Origin: an uncultured bacterium
GTDB lineage: Bacteria; Chlamydiota; Chlamydiia; Chlamydiales; VFKH01
Assembly: GCA_964630595.1 (NCBI GenBank)
Contig: CAZVVT010000001.1
Location: 568,813 to 632,812, forward strand
DNA length: 64,000 nt
Reading direction: 5' to 3'
Positions 11,145-12,691 of this stretch are shown one piece after another. The notes beneath the pieces are model-generated. The model did no database searches. It had not been told where the DNA came from and saw only the letters and a list, made by a program, of their open reading frames with translations. Both the position numbers and the translations under genes were made by a program. Numbering within the stretch: position 1 is the stretch's first letter; every line of letters begins with the position of its first letter.

Positions 11145-12033
11145 GAGCGACGAAGTCCAGCTCTGCTCTCTCATCTCCATCAAGACGGGCGGCTGCCCCG
11201 AAGACTGCAAGTACTGCCCCCAATCCTCGCGCTACAAAACAGCTGTCGATGCCGAACCTCTCATGAACAAGGAGGAGGTGCTGCAGCGCGCCCGCGCAGC
11301 GAAGGCGCAAGGCGCCAGTCGCGTTTGCCTCGGCGCTGCGTGGAGGCAGGTGCGCGACAGTGCGCAGTTTGATGCGGTGCTGGAGACGGTGAAAGAGGTG
11401 AGCGAGCTCGACGTCGAAGTCTGCTGCACGCTGGGCATGCTCAACGAAAGCCAAGCCAGGCGCCTCAAGGAGGCGGGACTCACTGCCTACAACCACAACC
11501 TCGACACTTCGCCTGAGTACTACAGCACGATCATCACCACACGCACTTATGAGGATCGCCTGCGCACGCTCGGGTGCGTGGAAAAGGCGGGCATCAGCGT
11601 CTGCTGCGGCGGCATCATCGGTATGGGCGAATCGATCGATGATCGCATTGGACTGCTTCACCAACTCGCCACACGAGAGATTCATCCCGAATCGGTGCCC
11701 ATCAATATGCTCGTTCCGGTGAAGGGCACGCCACTCGAAGATCGCGCACCTGTCTCCATCTTTGAGATGGTGCGCATGATCGCTACTGCCCGCATTGCCC
11801 TTCCTCAAGCCAAGATTCGCCTCTCCGCAGGCCGCCTCGAACGTTCGGAGGTCGAACAAGCTCTCTGCTTTATGGCAGGCGCCAATTCCATCTTCTCCGG
11901 CGAAAAACTCCTCACCACACCCAATCCAGACTATGACGACGACGCTGCCTTGCTCGAAACTCTGGGGCTCACAACTCATCGGTCTTTGAATCAAGTCCAC
12001 TCTACGCAACAGATTTTTCAACACAGCAAATGA
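11029..12033 (+). CDS. bioB: Biotin synthase (radical SAM)
   Basis: [11 protein letters not shown] radical-SAM cluster motif. N-terminus [31 protein letters not shown] aligns with E. coli BioB, so ATG 11041 may be the true start. Confidence 0.93.
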
Positions 12034-12141
12034 ACACCCCCGCTTGCACTCCTATTCACTGCAATATCACTTACAAACCTGAGTTTTGGGCCAAACAACA
12101 CCCCACATTATCGACAAACAAATTTTGCGAAGGAAAATATA

Positions 12142-12645
12142 ATGGGAGATTACGCGGTTGTGCAGAAACCTGCTATATTGGTGATAGGAATCGCTTGTCG
12201 AACATCTAACGCATCAGAAGATGGGCCCCAAGATATTCCAAAGCTCTGGGGAAGATTTTACAACAAAGGCATTATTCATCAAATTCCAAACAAAGTTTCT
12301 AATGAAGTCATCGCTCTATACTGTGACTACGAAGGCGATCATACTCAGCCGTATTCAGTAGTAATCGGTTGCCCTGTTAGCTCACTTGATACAATTCCCA
12401 CAGGAATGGTTGGGAAAACTATTCCTGCAAGTTCCTATGCCGTCTTCCGCGCAATTGGGGAATATCCCGCAAGCTTAATTGAAACCTGGGGAAATATTTG
12501 GAAGCACCCTGATTTACATCGTACGTATACCGGTGACTTTGAACTGTATGGCCATAAATTCGCATCAGAAGCCATCAAAGAGCTGGAGGTCTATATTGCT
12601 GTTCCCGAGGACGCCTCACCCAACCACACACAATCCAAACTATGA
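12142..12645 (+). CDS. GyrI-like small-molecule-binding domain protein (AraC effector-binding/SbmC-like fold); cargo of AT-rich islet 2
   Basis: 167 aa with the GyrI-like pattern ILVIGIACRT...DIPKLWGRFY...ALYCDYEGD...SVVIGCPV...YAVFRAIGEYP...TWGNIW...GDFELY. AAGGA SD-like sequence upstream. A sampled line is about 33 percent GC. Confidence 0.7.
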   Translation: MGDYAVVQKPAILVIGIACRTSNASEDGPQDIPKLWGRFYNKGIIHQIPNKVSNEVIALYCDYEGDHTQPYSVVIGCPVSSLDTIPTGMVGKTIPASSYAVFRAIGEYPASLIETWGNIWKHPDLHRTYTGDFELYGHKFASEAIKELEVYIAVPEDASPNHTQSKL

Positions 12646-12691
12646 TGACGATGTCGGCTTGCTCGAAACACTTGGACTCACGACTAGCCGT
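12623..12691 (+). repeat. Orphan duplicate of the bioB 3' coding end
   Basis: Translates [23 protein letters not shown] then TAG, versus [23 protein letters not shown] at 11914-11982 in bioB (18/23 aa, roughly 80 percent nt identity by eye). Overlaps the stop codon of the GyrI-like ORF. Confidence 0.85.

Follow-up and report, generated by a model that had tools for sequence, protein, structure and literature searches.

A foreign GyrI-like gene between two copies of the bioB 3' end in the biotin operon of a chlamydia-like bacterium

Downstream of the biotin synthase gene (bioB) of an uncultured chlamydia-like bacterium, the last codons of that gene occur a second time, and between the two copies lies a gene for a GyrI-like/Cass2 small-molecule-binding protein. 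This arrangement raises the question of how such a gene came to be placed inside the biotin (bio) operon between duplicated pieces of one of the operon's own members, which of the two bioB ends is the original, and what became of bioB and of the incoming gene. The stretch of DNA analysed (64,000 nucleotides, hereafter the window) belongs to a genome of 1.36 Mb in 10 contigs, with a GC content of 0.53 and a completeness rating of 100%. The features discussed below, including comparable islets elsewhere in the same genome, are collected in Table 1.

Table 1. Features of the bioB locus and the six islets (window coordinates unless a contig, C1 or C2, is named; islet rows give the starts of the two repeat copies)
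Feature	Coordinates (strand)	Remarks
PTP-like phytase gene	10206-11144	upstream of bioB
bioB, biotin synthase, 334 aa	11029-12033 (+)	Pfam Radical_SAM and BATS; native part to 11982
Repeat copy 1, gene-attached bioB 3' end	11914-11982 (+)	GC 0.57, host-like codons
bioB tail codons	11983-12030	16 aa read from inserted DNA; stop TGA 12031-12033
Inserted foreign DNA, about 630 bp	11983-12612 (+)	GC 0.432; right edge uncertain by about 10 nt (12611-12622)
Donor start-codon remnant and signal-peptide leader	12030-12141 (+)	ATG 12030-12032, overlapping the bioB stop
GyrI-like/Cass2 small-molecule-binding protein gene, 167 aa	12142-12645 (+)	PF14526, PF06445
Repeat copy 2, orphan bioB 3' end	12623-12694 (+)	TAG stop at native position; GC 0.49; no bioB body attached
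Ankyrin-like orphan gene, 318 aa	12719-13675 (+)	weak Ank_4 match; outside the repeat, between bioB and bioF
bioF	13746-14744 (+)	directly after bioB in 8 of 10 informative related loci
bioD, bioA		downstream of bioF
tmRNA 3' end islet	C1:190026/191323	repeat 85 nt, 100%; insert GC 0.395
rsgA 3' end islet	1449/2533	repeat 94/99; insert GC 0.395
bioB 3' end islet	11914/12623	repeat 54/69; insert GC 0.432
tyrP-1 5' end islet	27255/28049	repeat 86/95; insert GC 0.41
tyrP-2 3' end islet	30253/31285	repeat 29/33
450-aa ORF 3' end islet	C2:171898/172656	repeat 54/55; insert GC 0.455

The duplicated bioB end and its surroundings

A second copy of the last 23 codons of bioB (11914-11982) is found at 12623-12691, where it is followed by a TAG codon at 12692-12694. 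A repeat search paired 11914-11976 with 12623-12685 (63 nt at 83%), and alignment in codon register, carried on to 11982 and 12691, is gapless and in frame, with 54 of 69 nucleotides and 18 of 23 amino acids identical; nowhere do the copies agree over more than 12 consecutive nucleotides. The local alignment score of the pair (71) was matched by none of 500 shuffles, comparison of the whole 1.36-Mb genome with itself by BLAST returned the pair at an E value of 3.6e-8, and the orphan end was also recovered by tblastn (match L018). Moreover, a contig from an independent Logan assembly (SRR12808457) is 100% identical over 12.8 kb, so the locus is not an artefact of a single assembler. The 23-codon duplication reported in the initial annotation is thus confirmed from several sides, and chance similarity or faulty assembly, whose one attraction is the short length of the repeat, can hardly be credited, given that the match runs through 23 codons in frame and ends at a stop, and that 15 differences separate the copies, as would not be the case for a collapsed or duplicated read path.

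The gaps separating bioB, the GyrI-like gene, the ankyrin-like gene and bioF are 108, 73 and 70 nt. In a promoter and terminator scan no terminator-like site was found between bioB and the start of bioF (the sole same-strand terminator-like match, at 13796-13816, lies just inside bioF), and promoter-like matches across the locus were at chance level; co-transcription of the bio operon across both foreign-looking genes is, as far as the sequence can tell, plausible. No switch in GC skew occurs anywhere on contig C1; dnaA is 100 kb distant, and the skew is unchanged there.

Other genera of the order provide 10 informative loci, and in 8 of these bioF directly follows bioB, which answers a check proposed in the initial annotation, and none of these related loci has a GyrI-like or an ankyrin gene between the two; the PTP-like gene upstream of bioB is also kept in the two nearest genomes. 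These relatives therefore present the empty arrangement, albeit at some distance: the BioB protein is 69-72% identical to chlamydial BioB proteins, its nearest counterparts among 5.8 billion proteins reach 71-72%, and those in the nearest genomes of the same family 62-70%, so that the available relatives (BioB at most 72% identical) are too diverged for a nucleotide comparison with both copies of the repeat.

The GyrI-like gene had been said to split the bio operon. It does sit between bioB and bioF; however, it does not separate them alone, as the ankyrin-like gene lies there too. The latter has no homologue in either of the two sets searched, 150 genomes of the order and a collection of 5.8 billion proteins; looking for a close relative by way of this gene, as by way of BioB, gave none. 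As the ankyrin-like gene is situated beyond the repeat, is not itself flanked by a duplication (alignment scores around it are at shuffle level) and shows a GC content at third codon positions (GC3) of 0.455, compared with 0.64-0.73 for the bio genes, its arrival is an event separate from the GyrI-like insertion.

The inserted DNA and the two bioB ends

Only 1.1% of the 630-bp windows in the genome have a GC content as low as that of the insert. Measured over its whole length the insert has about 43-44% GC (37-42% in the leader), not the 33% or so first estimated from one sampled line, and the GC3 of the GyrI-like open reading frame (ORF) is 0.39, again compared with 0.64-0.73 in the bio genes. 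The encoded protein matches the Cass2 family PF14526 at 4.2e-28 (98.9 bits, cut-off 27) over positions 2-150 of 150, and hence over the full length of the domain; it also matches the GyrI-like family PF06445 (2.2e-17, 64.2 bits) and, among known structures, the integron cassette protein VCH_CASS2 (PDB 3gk6, E 2e-12). Many homologues, at most 81% identical, were found on AT-rich environmental contigs, where their neighbouring genes are unrelated. At the nucleotide level, a match of 76-80% with the GyrI-like loci of other environmental genomes begins at 12086 or 12116 and ends at 12611, and these bounds, together with the unusual composition, bear out the initial view that foreign DNA was inserted at the 3' end of bioB.

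The incoming gene has been damaged at both ends. Many of its homologues have 199 aa, including a signal peptide, and shorter ones span 154-165 aa. Upstream of the ORF, positions 12034-12141 are open and in frame with it; they translate to TPPLALLFTAISLTNLSFGPNNTPHYRQTNFAKENIM, which can be aligned gaplessly with the N-termini of the 199-aa homologues (for example P0004). From ATG to Met39 the homologues have 114 nt and the present locus 112 nt, a difference which indicates that two nucleotides were lost right after the donor's ATG, putting it out of frame with the leader. The gene can now be translated only from the Met codon at 12142, the start used by the short homologues. At the other end, the donor's last five or so codons and its stop are missing; the final ten or so codons of the present ORF, and its stop, come from the junction and the orphan repeat read in a different frame, with the TGA at 12643-12645 falling inside the orphan repeat, as had been observed before. 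The insert holds no second gene. The foreign piece thus consists of one gene, trimmed at its 3' end, and 47 nt of leader upstream of the ancestral ATG.

GyrI-like homologues occur in 66 of 150 sampled genomes of the order. The best of these (77% identical) belongs to a genome of a different family, and of the four genomes from the same family three have no homologue and the fourth has one at only 49% identity. Such a pattern suggests that the gene was acquired from another lineage, and the donor was therefore likely another, typically AT-rich, chlamydia; the loci carrying GyrI-like homologues have a GC content of 0.38-0.47.

What the insertion did to BioB is best seen by comparison with related proteins. 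BioB contains both expected domains (PF04055 and PF06968, the latter matched at positions 1-87 of 88 by residues 224-314) and the CPEDCKYC (CxxxCxxC) motif; the foreign tail begins after residue 318, outside both domains. In the 26 nearest BioB proteins, 4-15 residues follow the conserved (L/F)GL motif, compared with 20 in the gene-attached copy and 4 in the orphan. A tail of the type seen here, beginning SLNQ, is absent from all 26, any one of which, had it possessed such a tail, would have spoken against an integration as first proposed; its atypical nature is upheld, and only its length, given earlier as 18 codons, needs revision to 16 codons and a stop (11983-12033). These 16 codons are the leader of the foreign gene; the bioB TGA overlaps the foreign ATG as A-ATG-A. 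The native bioB stop is, by the same comparison, most readily seen in the TAG that follows the orphan copy, which ends four residues past the motif, inside the range of the 26 relatives, and so stops as a native BioB does, in agreement with the initial annotation.

The two copies have since fared differently. The gene-attached copy keeps the TxPNP sequence that is conserved in 25 of the 26 nearest BioB proteins, and in the orphan the conserved Pro is changed to His. From attached to orphan copy there are nine GC-to-AT changes compared with four AT-to-GC. The orphan is fused to nothing, and the GyrI-like ORF crosses it in another frame. Taken together, these observations support the view that the orphan is a non-functional, decaying leftover, and the gene-attached copy looks native. 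Of the 15 differences in the bioB pair, nine lie at third codon positions (19 of 33 when four islets are pooled, the numbers being small), a share above that expected of pure decay in one copy; it is compatible either with a copy carried in by the donor or with one selected and one neutral copy.

Routes of entry

The bioB islet is not alone in this genome. Comparison of the genome with itself, combined with the islets already noticed in the initial annotation, gave at least five others in which the start or end of a gene is duplicated over 33-122 nt. In each of the five inserts whose GC content was measured, a single AT-rich gene lies between the copies. Every duplicated piece covers a gene start or stop, with the result that the target gene stays whole. 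The interiors of the six islets have no sequence or ends in common beyond chance 11-12-mers. As had been supposed, the bioB pair (78% identical) is more diverged than the other three pairs in the window (rsgA 95%, tyrP-1 91%, tyrP-2 88%). Around GyrI-like homologues in 12 other loci no comparable flanking duplication was found; a 42-nt pair at one of them (L031) is a REP-like repeat, dispersed and present within neighbouring ORFs as well.

The machinery by which genes are usually mobilised is scarce. The genome, rated as complete, encodes two tyrosine recombinases, both of which match XerD/XerC best, and no serine recombinase; neither repeat forms a hairpin on either strand (z 0.2-1.3). Ku was not found; genes for a LigD-type primase-polymerase and an ATP-dependent ligase lie side by side (C1:427706-429384). 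The insert is a trimmed gene fragment without defined ends, hairpin or recombinase, and gives no support to integration in the sense of a dedicated element.

[quoted passage not shown] The locus would on this explanation be the scar of an old horizontal acquisition, in which about 630 bp of AT-rich DNA bearing a GyrI-like/Cass2 gene, probably from another chlamydia-like bacterium, was joined to the chromosome immediately before the bioB stop codon, and the last 70 bp or so of bioB were duplicated during the joining. We infer the chemistry of breakage and fill-in, and the enzymes concerned, from the outcome: a widely staggered break may have been filled in, or the fragment may have been joined to two sister chromosomes broken about 70 bp apart. 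The left copy would have stayed on bioB, lost its stop, and been read through 16 codons of the foreign leader to the TGA that overlaps the foreign ATG, and the right copy would have retained the native TAG and decayed. The later loss of 2 nt would then have disabled the signal-peptide start, leaving only a cytoplasmic protein of 167 aa made from the internal Met. Homologous excision by RecA needs longer identical stretches than the 12 bases that the copies share at most, and loss of the insert by homologous recombination is therefore unlikely, so that it is in effect fixed; the younger islets, whose repeats contain identical runs of 85 and 50 nt, could still be excised. Several points weigh on the other side: the nine third-position differences among 15 would also fit two gene ends that were kept under selection in separate lineages while they diverged; the cargo encodes no nuclease, and it is the host that would have to supply the break; and Ku was not detected.

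A second explanation, possible but in our judgement doubtful, holds that a small circle already bearing a segment like the bioB 3' end was integrated by Campbell-type or site-specific recombination, in which case the copies would have been diverged beforehand and one of them would be the donor's; such a circle could possibly have arisen in a related chlamydia, where the repeats flanking an earlier islet recombined and set it free. The excess at third positions (in the bioB pair as in the pooled islets), the preserved frame and stop of the orphan, and its greater AT content (GC 0.49 compared with 0.57 in the attached copy), as from a typical AT-rich chlamydial donor, all suit it, as does another AT-rich gene in the same genome that is flanked, in the manner of a classic att site, by perfect 85-nt copies of the tmRNA 3' end, and a cycle of release and re-invasion has been hypothesised for repeat-flanked units by Furuta et al. 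(PMC2853133). However, neither an integrase nor a serine recombinase is encoded anywhere in the genome, and the cargo is a trimmed gene fragment with neither its own stop nor recognisable element ends; the longest identical run of 12 nt is too short for an efficient homologous crossover, unless most of the divergence arose later; and no other GyrI-like locus examined has a bioB-like segment or a comparable flanking duplication.

It is very improbable that the islet is an integron-type gene cassette, in spite of the 'integron-associated' name of the Cass2 family, the match to PDB 3gk6 and a RYYYAAC...GTTRRRY pair (ACCCAAC at 12617, GTTAGGT at 12690) that brackets the orphan repeat as in an attC site. 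The 80-nt stretch concerned is homologous to bioB coding sequence, shows no excess folding (z 0.17 and 1.10 on the two strands for 12612-12700) and lacks L-box complementarity, and there is no GTTRRRY at the left junction. Nor does the genome encode an IntI, as IntI models score 116-123 bits on both of its recombinases against a cut-off of 265, and the GyrI-like/Cass2 family is a common chromosomal gene in the order, given its presence in 66 of 150 genomes. The absence of a hairpin and of an IntI, and the homology to bioB coding sequence, in practice rule out the attC reading.

Three further mechanisms were considered and rejected. In a template-variable repeat (TR/VR) pair of a diversity-generating retroelement the differences would fall on adenines, and only 5 of the 15 lie on an adenine of the orphan copy. 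An integrase-borne island or CIME is contradicted by the absence of an integrase, a longest identical run of 12 nt and the lack of a core common to the islets. Ku-dependent non-homologous end joining fails because Ku was not found, though the LigD-type primase-polymerase and the ATP-dependent ligase are encoded.

Returning to insertion with long target duplication, we also put forward a wider proposal, tentatively and as an improbable one: in this chlamydia-like lineage, without integrase, transposase or Ku, single foreign genes may reach the chromosome chiefly in this way, the events numbering at least six, of which four lie within 30 kb. No nuclease in the cargo would be needed, and the work could be done by host break-repair enzymes or, alternatively, by a cassette-like cycle in which repeat-flanked islets leave as circles and re-enter homologous gene ends of related chlamydiae sharing a host cell.

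Comparison with known systems

The prophage e14 and phage 21 integrate into icd of E. coli and leave behind a duplicated 3' pseudo-end of that gene. There, as at the bioB locus, a housekeeping gene has two versions of its 3' end that have diverged largely at synonymous sites, the gene itself remains intact, and the orphan lies beyond the insert. By contrast, the icd elements are prophages of at least 15 kb with an integrase and an att core, and the end attached to icd is the imported one, whereas the insert here is a 630-bp fragment without an integrase, and the attached copy looks native. CIMEs and decayed, integrase-less islands share with the bioB islet the small insert that is bounded by direct repeats and has no recombinase of its own; they differ in keeping functional att sites for a resident integrase, where here there is no such integrase, and no core common to the islets. 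With Cass2 itself (VCH_CASS2, PDB 3gk6), a GyrI-like/SbmC-type effector-binding protein from an integron cassette of Vibrio cholerae, the likeness extends over the full domain, but an integron context is absent here; the closest relatives (at most 81% identical) are stand-alone genes in AT-rich environmental genomes, and many homologues have a signal peptide, which the copy within the bioB islet has lost.

The closest parallel is insertion with long target duplication as described by Nobusato (2000, Gene 259:99) and by Furuta, Abe and Kobayashi (2010, NAR 38:2428, PMC2853133). In the published cases the repeats exceed 30 bp, mobility genes are lacking, and the repeats often span start or stop sites such that the target gene remains intact; one case sits inside an operon-like structure, and the cargo consists of restriction-modification genes, the double-strand break made by their own nuclease being suspected as the driver (PMC2853133). 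The present genome agrees with these in its target-copying repeats of more than 30 bp, in the absence of integrase and transposase, in the host-unlike composition of the inserts and in the occurrence of several events per genome. At bioB the repeat likewise spans the stop of a gene that survives, and the operon-like setting also has its published counterpart. Several differences are nevertheless evident. The cargo is a GyrI-like gene and not a restriction-modification system, by which the published surveys selected their cases, and the nuclease proposed as driver is absent with it; the host is an obligate intracellular chlamydia-like bacterium; and the repeat identity is 78%, compared with 95-100% in the published tables. 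In addition, the published cases are defined by the empty site of a near relative, whereas here the comparison is with the single bioB end of distant relatives.

For annotation, the islet accounts for an atypical BioB C-terminus, a spurious match to a bioB fragment and a GyrI-like gene whose true N-terminus is disabled. More generally, it offers a base-level record of the gain of an accessory gene in the operon of an essential cofactor, with the operon unbroken and no mobile-element machinery at hand, and it would extend the little-studied mode of long target duplication to cargo other than restriction genes and to the Chlamydiae. The six islets, with repeat identities from 78% to 100%, form a natural age series in which the decay and the irreversibility of such scars can be followed. 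Set beside the published cases, the bioB islet is a fairly ordinary example of a known, mechanistically unexplained kind of recombinase-free gene gain, and its interest lies mainly in its being one of six in a recombinase-poor intracellular genome.

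Islets in the studied genome

The islets, single AT-rich genes lying between direct repeats of a target gene's start or end, are unevenly distributed, with four of the six found in the genome falling in a 30-kb stretch (window 1438-31317). Of the five whose repeats measure 50 nt or more, three lie inside 26 kb, for which the rough chance is about 0.004. Neither a GC-skew switch nor a nearby dnaA accounts for the cluster. In the islet on contig C2, a 450-aa ORF has its final 55 nt in a second copy (54/55 identical), and the cargo between the copies is a nucleotidyltransferase-like gene of 158 aa on the opposite strand. 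The same islet contains one of at least eight copies (78-90% identity) of a dispersed repeat of about 178 nt, which looks like a MITE-type element because it matches itself in reverse orientation.

Coordinates of features in the studied genome (G000; C1, C2, C6 and C7 are its contigs, L037 its tmRNA region) and at the GyrI-like locus L031 of genome G135
Feature	Coordinates	Remarks
Ankyrin-like protein, 318 aa	window 12719-13675	between bioB and bioF
C2 islet	G000:C2:171898-172710	outside window; same build as other islets
Dispersed repeat, ~178 nt	G000:C2:172430-172608	copy inside C2 islet
Dispersed repeat, other copies	C2:139195, C2:82792, C2:97412, C1:232166, C1:516936, C6:65305, C7:35818	
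tmRNA islet	G000:C1:189717-191407 (L037 2218-3908)	outside window; ARAGORN tmRNA call
Tandem duplication, 113-aa ORF	G000:C2:103365-104329	outside window
GC-rich 42-nt repeat	L031 1264-1305 and 3252-3292	G135, from a different genus of the order
LigD-type primase-polymerase, ATP-dependent DNA ligase and XerC-like recombinase genes	G000:C1:427706-430393	adjoining; outside window

The bioB-bioF interval

bioB, the leader remnant (the donor gene's former signal-peptide start) and the GyrI-like ORF share one reading frame, in which a single TGA is the sole separator. An ATG overlapping the bioB stop (A-ATG-A) also begins a 59-aa out-of-frame ORF (window 12030-12209) that spans the start codon of the GyrI-like ORF. 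For the ankyrin-like protein, neither 150 genomes of the order nor a collection of 5.8 billion proteins yielded a homologue; its only match is a weak Ank_4 close to the C-terminus.

Repeats of other kinds

The 113-aa ORF occurs twice, in identical copies spaced 623 nt apart; this is a recent tandem duplication that differs in kind from the islets. The 42-nt repeat (GCGCAGCGCTTTGGAGTGCG...GCGACCGCTTTG) was rejected as a target duplication, since it recurs around and within the genes adjoining the GyrI-like gene of G135; it resembles a REP-type dispersed repeat.

Repair genes and the tmRNA islet

Ku was not detected in any part of the studied genome, which carries the LigD-type cluster. Its tmRNA encodes the tag peptide AKNGNKVVAMDFAPAAMAA (ARAGORN), and the last 85 nt have a perfect second copy 1.3 kb downstream; the two 3'-end copies enclose a 299-aa, AT-rich (0.395) ORF, and further AT-rich DNA lies beyond. 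Although the genome contains no integrase, the tmRNA islet resembles an att-type island.
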